A DNA stretch of 64,000 bases from a phage. The notes under the pieces are model-generated. The model saw only the letters and a program-made list of their open reading frames with translations. It did not search any database and was not told the origin of the DNA. This document shows positions 7,222 to 62,177 of this stretch, piece after piece; within the stretch, counting starts at the first letter, position 1; each line of letters begins with the position of its first letter. Position numbers and translations under genes: made by a program. The stretch lies in the sequence record PX436236.1; one strand, written 5' to 3'.

Positions 7222-7727
7222 ATTGTTCTCAATTCAATAAAATCTACAAGTTCGGCATAGGATTTGCGGAACATTACTTGGCGGCCGCCGATGACAACCT
7301 CATCTTCTGGTATTTCGTAAACGGCAAGATAGAATCCTTTAGAAGATAATTCTTCACGCTCTTCACGAGTGAACCAGCGCATCATATCATACTCGCTGGC
7401 AAAAGCAAAATGGTAGAGATTAACAAACCAACCTGGAATATAATCATCGCAGCCTTCATAATCAGGCTGGTCCCACTTAGTTCGAATGGTTTTATTAGAA
7501 TTTTCCACCAACAACTTGTCTTGACCTGGTAGCGGAATATTTTTATTATTGGTATGGTGGTGTCTAAAATTAGGTTTGTCGAAACCTACTTCTAATAACC
7601 AACCTTCGCTCCATTCATCAAACGAGCCTCTATACGGTGTTAATTGGCGGCACTGTTGGTGAGTGATTGCTATAACATCGCTGTTATCTAAGATACTGAA
7701 CGATGACTCCACTCGATAAATTTTCAT
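7218..7727 (-). CDS. hypothetical protein, 169 aa
   Basis: Start set at MKIYRVESS, preceded by GAGGAGAAC and the promoter cassette. Confidence 0.5.
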   Translation of the reverse strand: MKIYRVESSFSILDNSDVIAITHQQCRQLTPYRGSFDEWSEGWLLEVGFDKPNFRHHHTNNKNIPLPGQDKLLVENSNKTIRTKWDQPDYEGCDDYIPGWFVNLYHFAFASEYDMMRWFTREEREELSSKGFYLAVYEIPEDEVVIGGRQVMFRKSYAELVDFIELRTI

Positions 7728-7741
7728 TTTGTTCTCCTCAT

Positions 7742-7783
7742 GTTGATAGGGTAGATAATAACATGTCATGAGGAGAAGTAAAC
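7742..7783 (-). promoter_or_regulatory. Early-promoter cassette (GTTTAC, 17 nt, TATTAT, CCCTATCAAC)
   Basis: Spacer TCTCCTCATG is the exact reverse complement of the downstream RBS region CATGAGGAGA. Confidence 0.55.
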
Positions 7784-11892: not shown

Positions 11893-12461
11893 TAAAAATC
11901 CAACATTTTTAAATGAATTGTTTTATACTCGATTTCATACGGGTCTCTTTTGACGGTTTCGATTGCAACAATCTCAAATCGCGATTGGCTGGAGACCATG
12001 AACTCACATTCAGTTTCAACCATATCATAGAGGTCAATACGGGTTTCATCTATTTCAAGCTCATCTACATTCCCAGCAAGAACAAGGTCGATAGCATGAT
12101 TGTAGTAGTCGAAAATGAACGGTGCATTCCTGAGACTTAAAATGGTTTTGGTTCCATATTCCCATGCCCCTGCGAACTGACGAGCCTGAGAGTATTGTGT
12201 ACTAAAAGAAGTGACTCGACCAGGAGACCATTGACACCCTACTGAAAGGAGCTCTAATTGCTCAAGTTCTCTGGCGGTAATCCCACGATATAACTCTACT
12301 GGAACCGCTGAAGTAACATGCTTACGAACCAGCTTGTCAAGGTCGTAATGGAAGTTAGGGTCCTTTTTAGCATCCAGACATTTCTCTAACAAGGCTTGTT
12401 CAGATTTTGAAAATTTGGAATTGATTCGGTCTTGGTAAAGACATTTTTGTTCGATGTTCAT
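11892..12461 (-). CDS. modB: ADP-ribosyltransferase, Mod family (ModB-like), 189 aa
   Basis: R-S-E motifs: ELYRGI, SFSTQ, ECEFMV; paralog of the adjacent gene. Confidence 0.6.
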   Translation of the reverse strand: MNIEQKCLYQDRINSKFSKSEQALLEKCLDAKKDPNFHYDLDKLVRKHVTSAVPVELYRGITARELEQLELLSVGCQWSPGRVTSFSTQYSQARQFAGAWEYGTKTILSLRNAPFIFDYYNHAIDLVLAGNVDELEIDETRIDLYDMVETECEFMVSSQSRFEIVAIETVKRDPYEIEYKTIHLKMLDF

Positions 12462-12470
12462 ATGACCTCC

Positions 12471-12515
12471 GGTGATTTAGAGGTCATTATAACATGAAGG
12501 GAGGAGGTGTAAAAC
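12471..12515 (-). promoter_or_regulatory. Early promoter with RBS-containing hairpin
   Basis: GTTTTACA, spacer, TATAAT, then GACCTC...GGAGGTC inverted repeat that includes the SD. Confidence 0.45.
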
Positions 12516-18677: not shown

Positions 18678-18719
18678 GTTGATAGGGGTAATATACTACA
18701 TTACCCCTTTGATGTAAAC
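18678..18719 (-). promoter_or_regulatory. Early-promoter cassette
   Basis: GTTTAC, spacer, TATATT, CCCCTATCAAC; inverted repeat GGGGTAAT/ATTACCCC flanks the -10. Confidence 0.5.
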
Positions 18720-19120: not shown

Positions 19121-19438
19121 TTAGATTTCCTCACAGAAGGCCCATTCAGCATGATAAACCGTAGCGCCTTTAGTATCATTTAAACAAACCACATCCACCG
19201 GAGCAATTACACGATAAAGACGGGGTTCTCCTCCCACTGAACGAGCTGCACGTCCAGCATAAATCTTAGCCAAACCGATATCTTCAGTAAAGAACACACG
19301 ATTTAGGTTTTTCTTACGACCGGTTTCAGACAGAACTCCTGTTTCCTCAGGAGGACAAAGCATATTACCGATATTAGCGACACTACAACTTCCATGGTAA
19401 TACACTTTATATTCTGCTTTACAGTCGATGGTTTTCAT
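19121..19438 (-). CDS. hypothetical protein, 105 aa
   Basis: Start set at the ATG of MKTIDCK, preceded by GGAGAAC. Confidence 0.45.
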   Translation of the reverse strand: MKTIDCKAEYKVYYHGSCSVANIGNMLCPPEETGVLSETGRKKNLNRVFFTEDIGLAKIYAGRAARSVGGEPRLYRVIAPVDVVCLNDTKGATVYHAEWAFCEEI

Positions 19439-19450
19439 TTTGTTCTCCAA

Positions 19451-19491
19451 GTTGATAGGTCTATAGTATCACGCCTACAGGAGATGTAAAC
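19451..19491 (-). promoter_or_regulatory. Early-promoter cassette
   Basis: GTTTACATCTCCTGTAGGCGTGATACTATAGACCTATCAAC on the minus strand. Confidence 0.55.
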
Positions 19492-40808: not shown

Positions 40809-40987
40809 GATTTAATTTCCTTAGCTACTGAACAAAATAAAGAACGGTCACACACCATCAATGGAGCATCAGGGTGAGTCAAAGGTTGATACCATACATC
40901 GAGATTTGTTACCTTTGTTACTTGAACAGGGTAGCCATTTACTGAATAATACTGGTCGGCTTTAATTTCTTTATCTTGGATAGTCAT
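40805..40987 (-). CDS. hypothetical protein, 60 aa
   Basis: ORF preceded by a promoter cassette. Confidence 0.4.
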   Translation of the reverse strand: MTIQDKEIKADQYYSVNGYPVQVTKVTNLDVWYQPLTHPDAPLMVCDRSLFCSVAKEIKS

Positions 40988-41002
40988 AATGTTCTCCTCA
41001 TG

Positions 41003-41045
41003 TGTTGATAGGATAGACTATAACACGTGAGGAGAGGAAGTAAAT
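41003..41045 (-). promoter_or_regulatory. Early-promoter cassette (ATTTAC, TATAGT, CTATCCTATCAAC)
   Basis: Spacer TCTCCTCACGTG pairs with downstream CACATGAGGAGA, one mismatch. Confidence 0.5.
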
Positions 41046-47745: not shown

Positions 47746-48270
47746 TTATGCGAGAACCGTCTTTAAACGCTCTTCAAATTTATGAAGCAGAGCTTGGCGT
47801 TCAGCTCGTTGTGATTTGTACTGCTCGATACGACCTGAAGTGAGGGCGTACTGTTCGTTTACTGATTCCCGCATAAATTCAGGAATCTCTTTACAAGCTT
47901 TTATTTCGTCAAACTTATCAATAACCGCTTGTTGTTCAGCAATCAGATTATCGAAATAAGCGATATCAGATTTAACGTTTGCCAGGTCTGATTCGGTAGG
48001 CATTAAACGTTTGTTACGTTCAGCTTGATAAGCTTGGTTAGTTTCACGACTCCAGTGAAGAGTACGTTTTTTGTTAGTGTTTTTATAGAGCTCTACAATA
48101 CCGACTGAATCGATGATAACAATCCAGTTCCAACGGCTTTTGTAAATCTCTCCTCCAGCAACGGTAATCTCATTACCACAAGCAACATCGTTAAAGAACT
48201 TGCTTTGTTTTTCAGATTTGAAATTACCATTATTAAAATTAATCAGTGAAAAAATATCTTTAGCGTTCAT
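47746..48270 (-). CDS. hypothetical protein, 174 aa
   Basis: ORF downstream of a promoter cassette. Confidence 0.5.
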   Translation of the reverse strand: MNAKDIFSLINFNNGNFKSEKQSKFFNDVACGNEITVAGGEIYKSRWNWIVIIDSVGIVELYKNTNKKRTLHWSRETNQAYQAERNKRLMPTESDLANVKSDIAYFDNLIAEQQAVIDKFDEIKACKEIPEFMRESVNEQYALTSGRIEQYKSQRAERQALLHKFEERLKTVLA

Positions 48271-48284
48271 GATAACCTCCAGTA

Positions 48285-48325
48285 GTTGATAGGTCTATAG
48301 TATCATTTCTACCGGAGATGTAAAC
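48285..48325 (-). promoter_or_regulatory. Early-promoter cassette
   Basis: GTTTACATCTCCGGTAGAAATGATACTATAGACCTATCAAC; spacer pairs with the downstream SD region through two G-U wobbles. Confidence 0.55.
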
Positions 48326-48678: not shown

Positions 48679-49659
48679 TTATTTCAGAAGTGTAACTTCA
48701 GCGATTTCGCTCCAGTCATTTTTATCGGTGGCAATGAAGTCCGCCAGATAAAGAGCTGTACGTAATGATACGTTACGAAGACGAGATACATTAGCCTTCA
48801 TCCAGGACAGTGCTTGATAAGTCTCGGCATCAGTCAGACCACGGTTTTGCATCATATCAGTGGACAGGATAACGTCTTCAACACGGACCATAATCTCTTC
48901 GTTAGAGTGAACTCCGAGGTCTAAGTAAACTGAACGAGATACTAAAGCCTGGAGGTGTGGAGCAAGTTTAGTTCCACGCTCTAATTCACGGTCAATATCA
49001 ACGTTGGTGATGAACACGATGGTGCCTTCATACTCAAATTCTTTATCGATATTTTTATCATCAAGATAAGAACTTGAAGTGCTCCAGCACACCTTACGTT
49101 TTTCACCAGTATCCAATGCTGCTTTTAACAGGTTCAGGATATCCATATCAGAGAATACATCAACATCATCAATAAGAAGAACACTATTAGGGCCGCGGTT
49201 ATTCCAAAGCTGCTCGTAAAGACCGATTCCACTAATCTTTCCGTTGATTGATTTATATTCGATAGTTTCATTTTCGTGGGCATTCTGTAATGCTTTATCT
49301 AAAGAATACGTTTTACCAATACCTGCGGCACCAGAGATGATAAGGGAACGAATTTTACCATCGATGATTCCGTTAGTCATCATGTTCATTACTTTAAAAC
49401 GTTTGTTGATGCGGTGTTTCATTTCTTCAGAAGATTCGGTAACCACTACAGGAGCTTCAGCACCTTCGGTTTCGATATCAGATTTGAATACCCATACACC
49501 ACGTTCAACACCATCAATCTGTACGAATACCTTACCATCACCGAGGTGAGCTTCAGATTCATGAATTTTATTAGGGAACCAGGTTTTACCTGAACTCATG
49601 AACGTACCAGAGATTTCATTACCGCGATAGACACCTTTGTTGATTTTGATAGTTAACAT
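48679..49659 (-). CDS. P-loop NTPase (AAA-like), 326 aa
   Basis: Walker A GAAGIGKT and Walker B VLLIDDVD; start set at MLTIKINK with GGAGAA RBS, downstream of the promoter. Confidence 0.55.
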   Translation of the reverse strand: MLTIKINKGVYRGNEISGTFMSSGKTWFPNKIHESEAHLGDGKVFVQIDGVERGVWVFKSDIETEGAEAPVVVTESSEEMKHRINKRFKVMNMMTNGIIDGKIRSLIISGAAGIGKTYSLDKALQNAHENETIEYKSINGKISGIGLYEQLWNNRGPNSVLLIDDVDVFSDMDILNLLKAALDTGEKRKVCWSTSSSYLDDKNIDKEFEYEGTIVFITNVDIDRELERGTKLAPHLQALVSRSVYLDLGVHSNEEIMVRVEDVILSTDMMQNRGLTDAETYQALSWMKANVSRLRNVSLRTALYLADFIATDKNDWSEIAEVTLLK

Positions 49660-49685
49660 TATATTCTCCATTTCACTCAGTAGAT

Positions 49686-49725
49686 TTGATAGGTCCATAA
49701 TAACATGCTCTACGAGAGTGTAAAC
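49686..49725 (-). promoter_or_regulatory. Early-promoter cassette
   Basis: GTTTAC, 17 nt, TATTAT, GGACCTATCAAA. Confidence 0.5.
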
Positions 49726-53346: not shown

Positions 53347-53387
53347 GTTGATAGGTCTATAGTATCATGTTCCTAGAGGATGTAAAC
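53347..53387 (-). promoter_or_regulatory. Early-promoter cassette
   Basis: GTTTACATCCTCTAGGAACATGATACTATAGACCTATCAAC. Confidence 0.55.
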
Positions 53388-56778: not shown

Positions 56779-57237
56779 TTAAAGATAGATTACTTTCGTG
56801 CTGGTTTTACCTTCTAAACGTTTAGAGTTAACAAATGCCATACGACATTTAAGGGAATATCCTTTATCAGGATGTTTACGGTCTACAGTCATACCTAGCC
56901 ATAAGGTTTTATCGGTAATTTCGAGACGCAATGGGCGATACACTTTACCAGGGACAATTTCGGATTCTACATCAGGTAGAGGTTCCTGGATTAAAAATTC
57001 ATGAATTTCTTTAACATGGTTATGGAGTTGCTTGAATAAAGCAAAAACGTATTTTTCGTCGATTTCACGTTGGATAGCACGGTCCAACAAGTGATTAGAG
57101 TACTTAATAAAGAAGGCTGGGACTCCGCTCTTGATGGCGGCTTTTTTGATGGACGTATTCAGTTCACGGAATTCGGTTTCGAACTGACGACGTAATTTAT
57201 TGCGGCGGATGAATACTTCTGAATTAATTTCTGACAT
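56779..57237 (-). CDS. regB: RegB endoribonuclease, 152 aa
   Basis: Highly similar to T4 RegB (EVFIRRNKLRR...HLLDRAIQREIDE...LEITD..LWLG). Confidence 0.88.
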   Translation of the reverse strand: MSEINSEVFIRRNKLRRQFETEFRELNTSIKKAAIKSGVPAFFIKYSNHLLDRAIQREIDEKYVFALFKQLHNHVKEIHEFLIQEPLPDVESEIVPGKVYRPLRLEITDKTLWLGMTVDRKHPDKGYSLKCRMAFVNSKRLEGKTSTKVIYL

Positions 57238-57253
57238 TTTGTAATCTCCTGTA

Positions 57254-57294
57254 GTTGATAGGTCTATAGTACCACGTCTACAGGAGATGTAAAC
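57254..57294 (-). promoter_or_regulatory. Early-promoter cassette upstream of regB
   Basis: GTTTACA-TCTCCTGTAG-ACGTGGTACTATAGACCTATCAA-CTACAGGAGA: perfect 10-bp inverted repeat of spacer and SD region. Confidence 0.6.
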
Positions 57295-57786: not shown

Positions 57787-58001
57787 TTCACTTCCTCGCC
57801 AGTTGCGATATCATATTCTACCAAACGAAGGCCTTCAGTCCAACCTTGCACGGAGATATAGGTAGTCGGGTAAATCATTTCTTTACCATTCCACCGACCG
57901 CCATCCCAGACTTCCAGAAAGTCTTGTTCACCTGGTCCATTAAGCCATTCAACAAATCTTTTCAGAGCTTCTTCAGAACCTTCAATTGTCAATTTAGACA
58001 T
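57783..58001 (-). CDS. hypothetical protein, 72 aa
   Basis: ORF. Confidence 0.4.
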   Translation of the reverse strand: MSKLTIEGSEEALKRFVEWLNGPGEQDFLEVWDGGRWNGKEMIYPTTYISVQGWTEGLRLVEYDIATGEEVK

Positions 58002-59329: not shown

Positions 59330-59734
59330 AGCCTTGCCATAATGTTTGTACCAGGTAGGACGCTGTGCAATTTTTTCATCCAAACGGGTCTGAGATATAG
59401 CAATAGAAGCTTCGTGTGGAGTATAGTCACCACGGAATTCCTGAGGAATGTCACTAATGTCCTGGACAGTAGTATCCTTGATATTAAAACCACGTTTTAA
59501 ACATTCGGCTATAAGCTCAATTTGTCGCTTACGTAAAAATTCAAGCTTATCGTAAAAGAATGTAACATGGCCTGTGCCAAGGATAAAAGTAGGACTGATT
59601 TTGAAATCACGGACATGTTTACCATTAGCAACATGCTTACGAACTGCACCGAAAACACGTGGTAATTCACGATATTCAGCCATTAAGTGTTGGTCAGCCA
59701 ATTCAGATACTAAGGTAAGGTTGATACGAGTCAT
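59318..59734 (-). CDS. denV: endonuclease V (pyrimidine dimer glycosylase) DenV, 138 aa
   Basis: Near-identical to T4 DenV from [28 protein letters not shown]; start set at MTRINL. Confidence 0.92.
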
Positions 59735-59763
59735 TTTAGTGTTCTCCATGTTTGTATGAGAAC

Positions 59764-59792
59764 ACTATATCACAACTATCGTAAAAATAAAC
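59764..59792 (-). promoter_or_regulatory. Early promoter upstream of denV (GTTTAT, 17 nt, TGATATAGT)
   Basis: Sigma-70-like elements with extended -10. Confidence 0.4.
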
Positions 59793-61216: not shown

Positions 61217-61697
61217 ATGCTTTCCAAGTACCTGTTTTAAATGTTGAAATCACGCGCTTAGCACGATTAGGAGTTTGTTTATACCAACGGGATTGAGCCA
61301 GGTTAACTGCCGCATCGTTCCAACGTTTCTGTTGGAGCATACGTAAAGAGTTAGTGAACCCTGCTACGCCTGCTTCACCCATTTGGAAGACCATGTTAAT
61401 TAAAGCACAACGACGAACTTCGTCCAGTACATCATAAACAGGTTTCAATTTAGGATTACGCAGAATAGCTCTACGAGCATTTTCAACCGATCGGTTAAAG
61501 AGTTGTTCAGCTTCAGCCATAGTAATACGACCATTACAAACTCGACCTATAAGCTTATCAAGTTCAGCACGAGCAACATCTTTAGAAGGGTTCTTAGTAA
61601 TCAATTGGCCGATACCAATAGTCCAATAACCTTCAGTGTCTTTATAAAGATTTAAATCAAGACCTTCGTCTTGACGTAACATATCAAAAATATCCAT
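61203..61697 (-). CDS. e: lysozyme (endolysin, gene e), 164 aa
   Basis: Near-identical to T4 lysozyme ([16 protein letters not shown] ... [30 protein letters not shown]). Confidence 0.95.
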
Positions 61698-61727
61698 AAT
61701 ACCTCCTGAGTATAGGAGGTATTTATA
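61698..61727 (-). promoter_or_regulatory. Late promoter TATAAATA plus SD-sequestering hairpin upstream of gene e
   Basis: Minus strand: TATAAATA-CCTCCTATACTCAGGAGG-TATT-ATG; 7-bp stem pairs ACCTCCT with AGGAGGT. Confidence 0.6.
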
Positions 61728-62177
61728 TCAAAAGAGCGAATCTAAAACCTTAAACATCGACGGGCCCATGACATATTCCCATTGCGGACGTTTAATCAAG
61801 GCAAAAGCATCAAATTCAGGAATAGTACGACCGTCAGGGAACGTATGGTAAGCCGTACATTTGCAATCCTTGAACTGCTCGTGTTCCACAGGCACCGTAT
61901 ATAAGAACAGATGTAGATTCTTATTGCTTGAATATTTGAACTCACCCAGGTCTTTCAGGAACGCAGGATCGTATGCTGTGAATCCAATCTCTTCTTCGGT
62001 TTCGCGCATTGCCGCTTGAATGGGCTCTTCGCCTGGTTCGACATGACCCTTAGGAATGTCCCATTTATGACGCATATTCTCTGGATTACGAGAGCCTGTT
62101 ACACGGCCCATGACCAGTTCTTTATCAACGGTCATGAATAAAATACCGGCAGATAGTTCTTTCACTTTCTTACTCAT
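61728..62177 (-). CDS. nudE: Nudix hydrolase NudE, 149 aa
   Basis: Nudix box GHVEPGEEPIQAAMRETEEEIGF; start set at MSKKVKEL. Confidence 0.75.
   Translation of the reverse strand: MSKKVKELSAGILFMTVDKELVMGRVTGSRNPENMRHKWDIPKGHVEPGEEPIQAAMRETEEEIGFTAYDPAFLKDLGEFKYSSNKNLHLFLYTVPVEHEQFKDCKCTAYHTFPDGRTIPEFDAFALIKRPQWEYVMGPSMFKVLDSLF

Follow-up and report, generated by a model that had tools for sequence, protein, structure and literature searches.

Early promoters of a T4-type phage probably double as translational insulators that mask the Shine-Dalgarno sequence in read-through RNA

Why would the spacer of a promoter be the reverse complement of the ribosome-binding region that lies downstream of it? 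The question is raised by the intergenic segment before regB in a 64,000-nucleotide (nt) stretch of phage DNA (sequence record PX436236.1, hereafter the window), where the element under study occupies positions 57,238 to 57,294. At 99% identity, the window matches Shigella phage PSD9 and Escherichia phage QL01, which are Dhakavirus, or JS98-like T4-type, phages. A first-pass annotation made from the letters alone had described the spacer between the -35 and -10 hexamers of the regB promoter as an inverted repeat of the stretch holding the regB Shine-Dalgarno (SD) sequence, and had suggested that the two form an RNA structure. Here we argue that early sigma70-type promoters of this T4-like phage probably double as translational insulators. 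The argument draws on the geometry of the promoters, the covariation and strand asymmetry of their complementary arms, an anticorrelation with upstream terminators, and predicted energetics.

All genes concerned are encoded on the minus strand, and the four sites considered first are read on that strand. Between the stop codon of the preceding open reading frame (ORF) and the regB start codon, the order of elements is TAA-agca-GTTTAC-ATCTCCTGTAG-acgtgg-TACTAT-agacctatcaa-CTACAGGAGAT-tacaaa-ATG. These 61 intergenic nt are nothing but a promoter and a ribosome-binding site, and the counterpart of regB in QL01 is annotated as a site-specific RNA endonuclease. The 11-nt segment following the -35 and the 11-nt segment holding the SD are exact reverse complements of each other, giving 11 perfect base pairs (bp), so the inverted repeat is as exact as had been described. 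The same geometry with other arm sequences had been placed at 7733-7776, 40993-41035, and 48276-48318, and all three copies are present on the minus strand. At the first, before a motB.2-like gene, pairing is perfect. The second precedes a gene orthologous to T4 55.6, and the single mismatch noted there is a C-A opposition in the sense RNA. The third precedes a gene whose product is 69% identical to T4 NrdC.8; both differences between its arms had been called G-U-compatible and are G-U pairs in the sense RNA, at positions where relatives have A-U.

We propose that each such promoter carries, upstream of its own start site, a pyrimidine-rich anti-SD arm, usually the opening 10-13 nt of the -35/-10 spacer. 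A polymerase arriving from the upstream gene would transcribe this arm first, and the arm would pair with the downstream SD region upon its emergence. The predicted product is a stem of 10-13 bp with a loop of ~24 nt holding the -10 and the start site, in which ribosome loading would be blocked. An RNA started locally would begin within the loop, without the 5' arm, and would present a free SD on a leader of ~25 nt. Under this model, translation of regB, denV, and the modB-like, motB.2-like, nrdC.8-like, and 55.6-like genes would be limited to their own immediate-early transcripts, and any read-through RNA passing over them after early-promoter shut-off would stay silent.

Folding of the two kinds of leader was in line with this model. 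We calculated the SD opening energy, defined as the free energy needed to expose a 6-nt SD window, in read-through RNA begun 80 nt upstream and in RNA begun at the predicted start, with start sites inferred from promoter geometry throughout. The SD was buried in read-through leaders only: across the four sites, opening cost 11.3-13.6 kcal/mol in read-through RNA versus 2.3-4.1 kcal/mol in promoter-initiated RNA (regB, 11.3 versus 4.1; motB.2-like, 13.6 versus 3.3; gp55.6-like, 13.4 versus 2.3; nrdC.8-like, 13.1 versus 3.4). In the cassettes tested, the SD was paired in both the minimum-energy and the centroid fold of read-through RNA, and fold z-scores ranged from -2.8 to -5.7. Because the arm lies upstream of the -10 at all four sites, transcripts from the local promoter would lack it. 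Both parts of the first-pass suggestion, a sequestered SD in read-through RNA and an open one in local transcripts, are thus borne out in silico. The supply of read-through RNA is predicted from gene arrangement. The stop codon of the preceding ORF lies 1-4 nt before the -35 at each of the four sites, with no terminator between, and a terminator scan around regB stayed at background level. An upstream ORF that adjoins the -35 in the absence of a terminator makes read-through plausible.

How widespread is this arrangement within the window? A regular-expression scan returned 18 T4-type early promoters on the minus strand, each followed by an SD and an ATG. The embedded promoters have the form GTTTAC-N17/18-TAnnnT, a sigma70-type -35/-10 architecture. 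The denV promoter, which has the variant -35 GTTTAT, was found separately and is not among the 18. SD pairing was lacking at 13 of the scanned promoters, five of which have short hairpins at the -10 that leave the SD open. Beyond the four sites initially noted, we identified two further SD-masking promoters, before the modB-like gene and denV, with an alternative geometry in which the anti-SD arm is formed by the nucleotides between the -10 and the predicted +1. Opening the modB-like SD cost 14.0 kcal/mol in the upstream context versus 2.2 kcal/mol in its own transcript, the latter value depending on the predicted start site, and the denV SD cost 10.1 kcal/mol in the upstream context. Anti-SD cores in the promoters are TCTCC, TCCTC, or CCTCC, paired with GGAGA, GAGGA, or GGAGG. 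The coordinates of all six cassettes are given in Table 1.

Table 1. Masking cassettes on the minus strand of the window, with predicted promoter elements and complementary arms.
Feature	Position	Strand	Sequence and details
regB -35 hexamer	57289-57294	-	GTTTAC; stop codon of preceding ORF ends 4 nt before
regB 5' arm (anti-SD)	57278-57288	-	ATCTCCTGTAG; first 11 nt of 17-nt spacer; paired in minimum-energy and centroid folds
regB -10 hexamer	57266-57271	-	TACTAT; within hairpin loop; start predicted at the A of ATCAAC, ~7 nt downstream
regB 3' arm	57244-57254	-	CTACAGGAGAT; SD GGAG inside; pairs with 5' arm
regB coding sequence	56779-57237	-	152 amino acids; Pfam PF10715 REGB_T4, E=6e-69
motB.2-like cassette	7725-7783	-	-35 7778-7783; -10 7755-7760; ATG 7725-7727; orthologous to T4 motB.2
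motB.2-like arms	5' 7767-7777; 3'/SD 7732-7742	-	5' TTCTCCTCATG; 3'/SD CATGAGGAGAA; 11 bp, perfect
gp55.6-like gene (60 amino acids) cassette	40985-41045	-	-35 ATTTAC 41040-41045; -10 41017-41022; ATG 40985-40987
gp55.6-like arms	5' 41023-41035; 3'/SD 40993-41005	-	5' TCTCCTCACGTGT; 3'/SD ACACATGAGGAGA; one internal mismatch
nrdC.8-like cassette, promoter to ATG	48268-48325	-	-35 48320-48325; -10 48297-48302; ATG 48268-48270
nrdC.8-like arms	5' 48309-48319; 3'/SD 48275-48285	-	5' ATCTCCGGTAG; 3'/SD CTACTGGAGGT; two G-U pairs in sense RNA
modB-like cassette	12459-12514	-	-35 12509-12514; -10 12486-12491
modB-like arms	5' 12479-12487; 3'/SD 12462-12470	-	5' ATGACCTCT, between -10 and predicted start; 3'/SD GGAGGTCAT
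denV cassette	59732-59792	-	-35 GTTTAT 59787-59792; -10 59764-59769; alternative geometry, as modB-like
denV arms	5' 59758-59767; 3'/SD 59737-59746	-	5' TAGTGTTCTC; 3'/SD GAGAACACTA

The surroundings of these promoters resemble the promoter-early stem-loop (PeSL) cassettes of T4-type phages (Arbiol et al. 2010, PMC2839356; Comeau et al. 2014). As with PeSLs, they are repeated intergenic modules of upstream stop codon, early promoter, stem-loop, SD, and ATG; the stem-loop lies between the -35 and -10 or overlaps the -10; and cassettes are common to non-orthologous genes. In the window, all 18 early promoters lie in a short intergenic space with the SD and ATG downstream, and at 12 of them the stop codon is 0-4 nt from the -35.

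Could such pairing arise by chance? A search of the whole window for exact 10-nt inverted repeats with loops of 15-35 nt gave nine hits at five loci, compared with ~2 hits expected, while a general repeat search mostly returned imperfect palindromes in coding regions and was uninformative. The excess of palindromes is only modest, which places the signal in their location at spacer and SD rather than in their presence. Since the genome-wide count was weak alone, we instead compared self with non-self promoter pairings. Among the 18 window promoters, duplexes between the four sites' own spacer and SD had energies of -16.6 to -18.3 kcal/mol, versus non-self means of about -6 to -10 kcal/mol. In the matrix of every spacer against every SD in the window, none of these self combinations ranked below second in its row or column (p = 0.002 by permutation). 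The same held in an enlarged set of 278 distinct promoters drawn from the window, the complete T4 genome, and 120 IMG/VR loci with the conserved promoter pattern. Here, a helix score of at least 8 between own spacer and own leader was attained by 23% of promoters versus 2.8% of mismatched pairs, and a score of at least 10 by 14.7% versus 0.27%. Nearly all 3' arms of strong helices fall at one of two places, directly next to the -10 or over the SD, and the 3' arm coincides with the SD in 35 of 64 strong helices.

If the pairing matters, it should outlast changes in the arms themselves. Pairing with unrelated arms is found at T4 regB (TTTTCCTCTT / AAGAGGAGAA) and T4 nrdC.8 (GTTCCTCTG / CGGAGGAAC), and a more distant regB relative (L016) has a 13-bp pairing (TTCTCCTCTTTAT / ATAAAGAGGAGAA). 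The SDs of T4 motB.2 and modB are likewise masked; at the latter, a pairing of AGCTTCT with GGAGGCT, read by eye, accompanies opening energies of 13.0 versus 1.7 kcal/mol. Column-based covariation among distant regB orthologues was impossible because the arms shift position. The covariation alignment was instead made from 15 paralogous and orthologous promoters of the same geometry, which align unambiguously and most of which were picked for having the helix. Across the 11-bp helix, 96.9% of cells were paired versus 81% in shuffles, with two-sided changes at five of the 11 pairs. The covariation score (0.369, versus 0.118 ± 0.029) was reached by 0 of 500 shuffles and was lost on sliding the partner by 1-3 columns, and RNAalifold independently predicted the same helix from the alignment. 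In a subset picked only by an nTCTCC spacer and a GGAG SD, 21 of 25 promoters extended the 5-bp core by at least four pairs, versus 21% of mismatched partners. The claim that changes between copies preserve pairing therefore gained statistical support.

Whether selection acts on RNA or DNA can be gauged from imperfect pairs. We used 49 distinct arm pairs from a helix search in which G-T and A-C oppositions were tolerated equally. The transition mismatches in real helices comprised 30 G-U and four A-C, where chance helices have 53% G-U (binomial p = 2e-5). This excess suggests the sense RNA is the selected molecule, which is consistent with the RNA structure originally proposed from covariation. 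Selection on the sense RNA in turn points to read-through transcripts, the sole sense RNAs containing the 5' arm.

The same asymmetry would be unexpected for a duplex or cruciform, and so bears on the notion that the repeats are a DNA-level feature, such as a recombination hotspot, a cruciform, a protein site, or a hitch-hiking mobile promoter cassette without RNA function. This notion is favored by the occurrence of near-identical cassettes before non-orthologous genes. The cassette before regB in the window (57235-57294, minus strand) is nearly identical to the one before the non-orthologous T4 denV (T4 65355-65413, minus strand), and the two share their arms. Moreover, the promoter at 19491 (19438-19491, minus strand) combines a regB-type 5' half with a different SD half, such that only TCTCC/GGAGA can pair; this hybrid suggests that cassettes were exchanged by crossing over between the -10 and SD, an event that has been reported for PeSLs (PMC2839356). 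These two signs of shuffling are suggestive only. However, the arms of orthologous promoters can be wholly different and yet complementary, such variable sequences make sequence-specific protein recognition unlikely, and a DNA-level role offers no rationale for a link with missing upstream terminators, to which we turn below. Taken together, we consider it highly improbable that the repeats act solely as DNA.

The hairpins are nearly confined to promoters that no intrinsic terminator precedes. Of 228 promoters lacking such a terminator, 62 had strong helices, compared with 2 of the 50 that have one (Fisher p = 1.5e-4). In the window, UUCG-tetraloop terminators and a T run directly precede the promoters at 53387, 49725, 19491, 14129, and 2779, forming terminator-promoter composites. 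None of these five shows strong spacer-SD pairing. Even the one at 19491 does not, since its SD region fails to match a spacer that is almost the same as that of regB. At 12 of the 18 window early promoters, the neighboring genes are closely packed and no terminator intervenes; many T4 early promoters are arranged in this way. The predicted energetics followed the same division: in read-through RNA, SD opening energies of at least 8 kcal/mol were found at 20% of terminator-free promoters and at 4% of those preceded by a terminator, whereas 0 of 274 promoter-initiated leaders reached this value. As a control, we examined those minus-strand genes, in T4 and in the window, that lack an early promoter; 6% of them (nine genes) exceeded 8 kcal/mol. 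The six in T4 were e, I-TevI, I-TevII, segB, 55, and 26. The first four of these are named in the literature as experimentally established cases of masked SDs (PMC3014915), indicating that the opening-energy measure recovers known cases.

That the hairpins sit where canonical terminators are absent, as if substituting for them, would also fit a different role, namely that they are the terminator, attenuator, or RNA-end-stabilising part of PeSL cassettes and serve to stop or process upstream transcripts, with SD overlap being incidental. The PeSL papers assign stem-loops a terminator or attenuator role, and one RB49 stem-loop cut lacZ expression as strongly as rrnB T1 (PMC2839356). In addition, the hairpins of many sister promoters do not touch the SD. 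Nevertheless, the four hairpins have loops of ~24 nt, no U tract follows their 3' arms (the subsequent sequences are UUACAAAAUG, UAUCAUG, ACAUUAUG, and CAAAAUG), and the terminator scan listed none of them, which led us to reject an intrinsic terminator with a GC-rich stem, a loop of 3-8 nt, and a U tract. The coincidence of the 3' arm with the SD across strong helices is also too regular for incidental overlap. The PeSL papers treat the SD as separate from the stem-loop, whereas here the SD is the 3' arm and the loop holds the -10 and start. The archetypal PeSL stem-loops of RB49 differ in geometry, being compact Gn-loop-Cn structures off the SD; when tested as SD maskers, they left the SD open (0.5-4.6 kcal/mol). 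The stems described for the T4/PST pair lie upstream of the promoter. We regard an attenuator role with incidental overlap as unlikely. A known RNA family was also rejected, as Rfam 15 gave no match at the gathering threshold across the whole window.

Translational coupling offers another way to read a masked SD. Unmasking of an SD by upstream ribosomes is a classical coupling mechanism. Here, the 5' arm would keep the SD masked unless melted by a ribosome that completes the upstream ORF, so that translation of the downstream gene in polycistronic RNA would require translation of the upstream one. Proximity speaks for coupling, since at all four sites the upstream stop codon is 0-4 nt before the -35 and 8-11 nt before the first paired base. 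A ribosome with a stop codon in its A site covers ~10 nt beyond it. Judging from this general footprint, however, a terminating ribosome would reach at most 1-2 pairs of a 10-13 bp helix, and the 5' arms of the modB-like gene and denV are more than 25 nt from the stop codon. Coupling also offers no reason for the consistent location of the 5' arm upstream of the start, such that none of the 274 promoter-initiated transcripts is masked. Coupling is accordingly a quite improbable explanation, and we continue with insulation of read-through RNA by the promoter.

Insulation of this type has precedents. In T4, the genes e, soc, 49, and I-TevI (also I-TevII, segB, and Aeh1 mobE) have the SD and/or AUG in a helix in upstream-initiated transcripts, while transcription from a local promoter begins within or beyond the 5' strand and yields translatable RNA (PMC3014915). 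The cassettes described here resemble this gating in that the SD is predicted to lie in a stable helix in read-through RNA (11.3-14.0 kcal/mol in silico) and, going by predicted starts, promoter-initiated RNA would be without the inhibitory arm. Unlike the cassettes described here, the known cases embed late gp55 promoters (TATAAATA) that delay expression to the late period of infection. With an early sigma70-type promoter embedded instead, the predicted outcome is the mirror image, in which expression would be confined to the immediate-early burst. The 5' arm also differs in being located in the -35/-10 spacer, and the arrangement concerns 10 of 34 scanned early promoters in T4 (about 30%) rather than a handful of genes. 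These T4 promoters precede nrdC.8, ndd.4, alt.-3, modB, regB, motB.2, denV, 30.8, alc, and e.8. The window also contains the classical T4 arrangement at its own lysozyme gene e (61695-61735, minus strand; ATG 61697), where the late promoter TATAAATA is followed by ACCTCC...GGAGGT pairing the SD, with an SD opening energy of 11.2 kcal/mol in the upstream context.

A second precedent is found in bacterial sigma54 promoters, where a CT-rich anti-SD motif inside the promoter was shown experimentally to silence read-through translation (Levy et al., bioRxiv 10.1101/086108). The phage cassettes similarly place a CT-rich anti-SD motif inside a promoter, where it is predicted to pair with the downstream ribosome-binding site. 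The sigma54 motifs are 3-5 nt long and at most 25 nt from the SD, whereas the phage sigma70-type early promoters have helices of 10-13 bp with covarying flanks and arms ~35 nt apart. The UUCG-tetraloop terminators before early promoters likewise deal with transcription arriving from upstream, and the two devices are alternatives to each other here. The terminators have a GC stem, a short loop, and a U tract, lie before the -35, and stop the RNA, while the hairpins span the promoter, have no U tract, and have translation as their predicted target.

We found no earlier account of pairing between spacer and SD at T4-type early promoters in literature including two 2010 T4 reviews, a five-genome paper, and the PeSL papers, a search that did not cover key older papers. 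An abstract by Valerie et al. from 1986 reportedly mentions potential stem-loops before ipIII, ipII, denV, and orf61.9, the last of which we take to be the ORF now called regB. Hence, partial notice in the 1980s literature is possible. The type of mechanism is known from T4 late genes, sigma54 insulators, and PeSLs, while the early-promoter geometry and its prevalence look new.

Several observations weigh against insulation as a complete account. For this phage, the start sites, read-through RNA, translation block, and temporal purpose are predictions throughout. SD-masking hairpins are limited to roughly one fifth to one quarter of early promoters. Hairpins of a second class, described below, are about as common, and their role is unexplained by masking; hairpins in read-through RNA could have a broader shared role, of which SD masking is one outcome. 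Regarding the statistics, the promoter sets include orthologues, so that p-values overstate independence, and the contrast between G-U and A-C is smaller at the level of clusters (14 with G-U versus 4 with A-C). The mismatch in the gp55.6-like helix is not wobble-compatible and is nonetheless kept in five relatives. Physically, a loop of ~24 nt slows helix nucleation relative to a compact hairpin, and with the upstream stop codon so close to the first paired base, terminating ribosomes might perturb the helix.

These points notwithstanding, promoter-encoded insulation would have consequences for temporal control. More tentatively than for this phage, it is possible that T-even-type phages use it genome-wide, at about one quarter of early promoters, for genes that would never be translated from read-through or middle-mode RNA. 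The rapid fall in T4 early protein synthesis has been ascribed to an early-promoter shut-down that is 'not completely understood', with RegB helping (PMC3014915). Masking may be a previously unrecognised post-transcriptional contributor to this abrupt shut-off, beside promoter silencing and RegB cleavage. If true, toxic takeover proteins (RegB, Alc, and ModB, for example) would cease to be made upon promoter silencing alone, despite polymerases crossing their genes from upstream early and middle promoters. Masking would also explain how early promoters are tolerated between packed genes without terminators, and it would generalise to T4 itself, a founding model of temporal gene control. The PeSL concept would be refined in that at least one class of 'stem-loop' is predicted to act on translation, not termination. 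Such cassettes would further provide compact natural insulator parts for synthetic operons. With respect to RegB, its target has been described as GGAGRAYARAA (PMC1702504), and the SDs of several masked genes fit or approach this motif. Judging from these motifs, promoter-initiated transcripts of masked genes may also be quickly inactivated by RegB.

The second class of promoter hairpin occurs on the minus strand of the window at promoters with their -35 at 18719, 6670, 11892, 27691, and 39917, and in T4 at promoters upstream of dmd and ipII, at 57990 (before mobD.2), and at 73939 (before ipI). Its 5' arm lies mid-spacer and its 3' arm right after the -10, which is placed in a loop of 6-10 nt (e.g., AGGGGTAAT/ATTACCCCT at 18719). 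These hairpins form only in read-through RNA and show the same G-U bias, while the SD remains accessible (opening 0.2-3 kcal/mol). Conceivably, once the SD has been cleaved, they shield the 3' end that this leaves on the upstream message. At the regB promoters of other T4-type phages (L007-L014, L018, and L019), the hairpin class differs from lineage to lineage. In some, a stem enclosing the -10 (GTGTAGGAGTA/TACTTCTACAC) is the sole hairpin; in others, this inner stem is nested in a short outer pairing of TCTCC/GGAGA or TCCTT/AAGGA.

At roughly half of the window's early promoters, the initially transcribed sequence that follows the -10 is conserved as CCTATCAAC(T) (e.g., 57255-57263), and it also occurs in T4. 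It reaches from ~3 nt before the predicted starts to 6 nt past them, and promoter-initiated mRNAs would begin with AUCAAC. At 49655-49725 (minus strand), two in-frame ATGs are 12 nt apart, the second with a good GGAGA SD. The first is preceded by CTACTGAGTG, a degenerate CTAC-n-GGAG 3' arm that pairs partly with the spacer sequence CTCTCGTAG, and the locus may represent a masking hairpin that decayed behind a terminator. Finally, the ATG at ~62996 (minus strand) of an ORF of 197 amino acids has an SD opening energy of 12 kcal/mol in its upstream context, with no early promoter detected within 90 nt.

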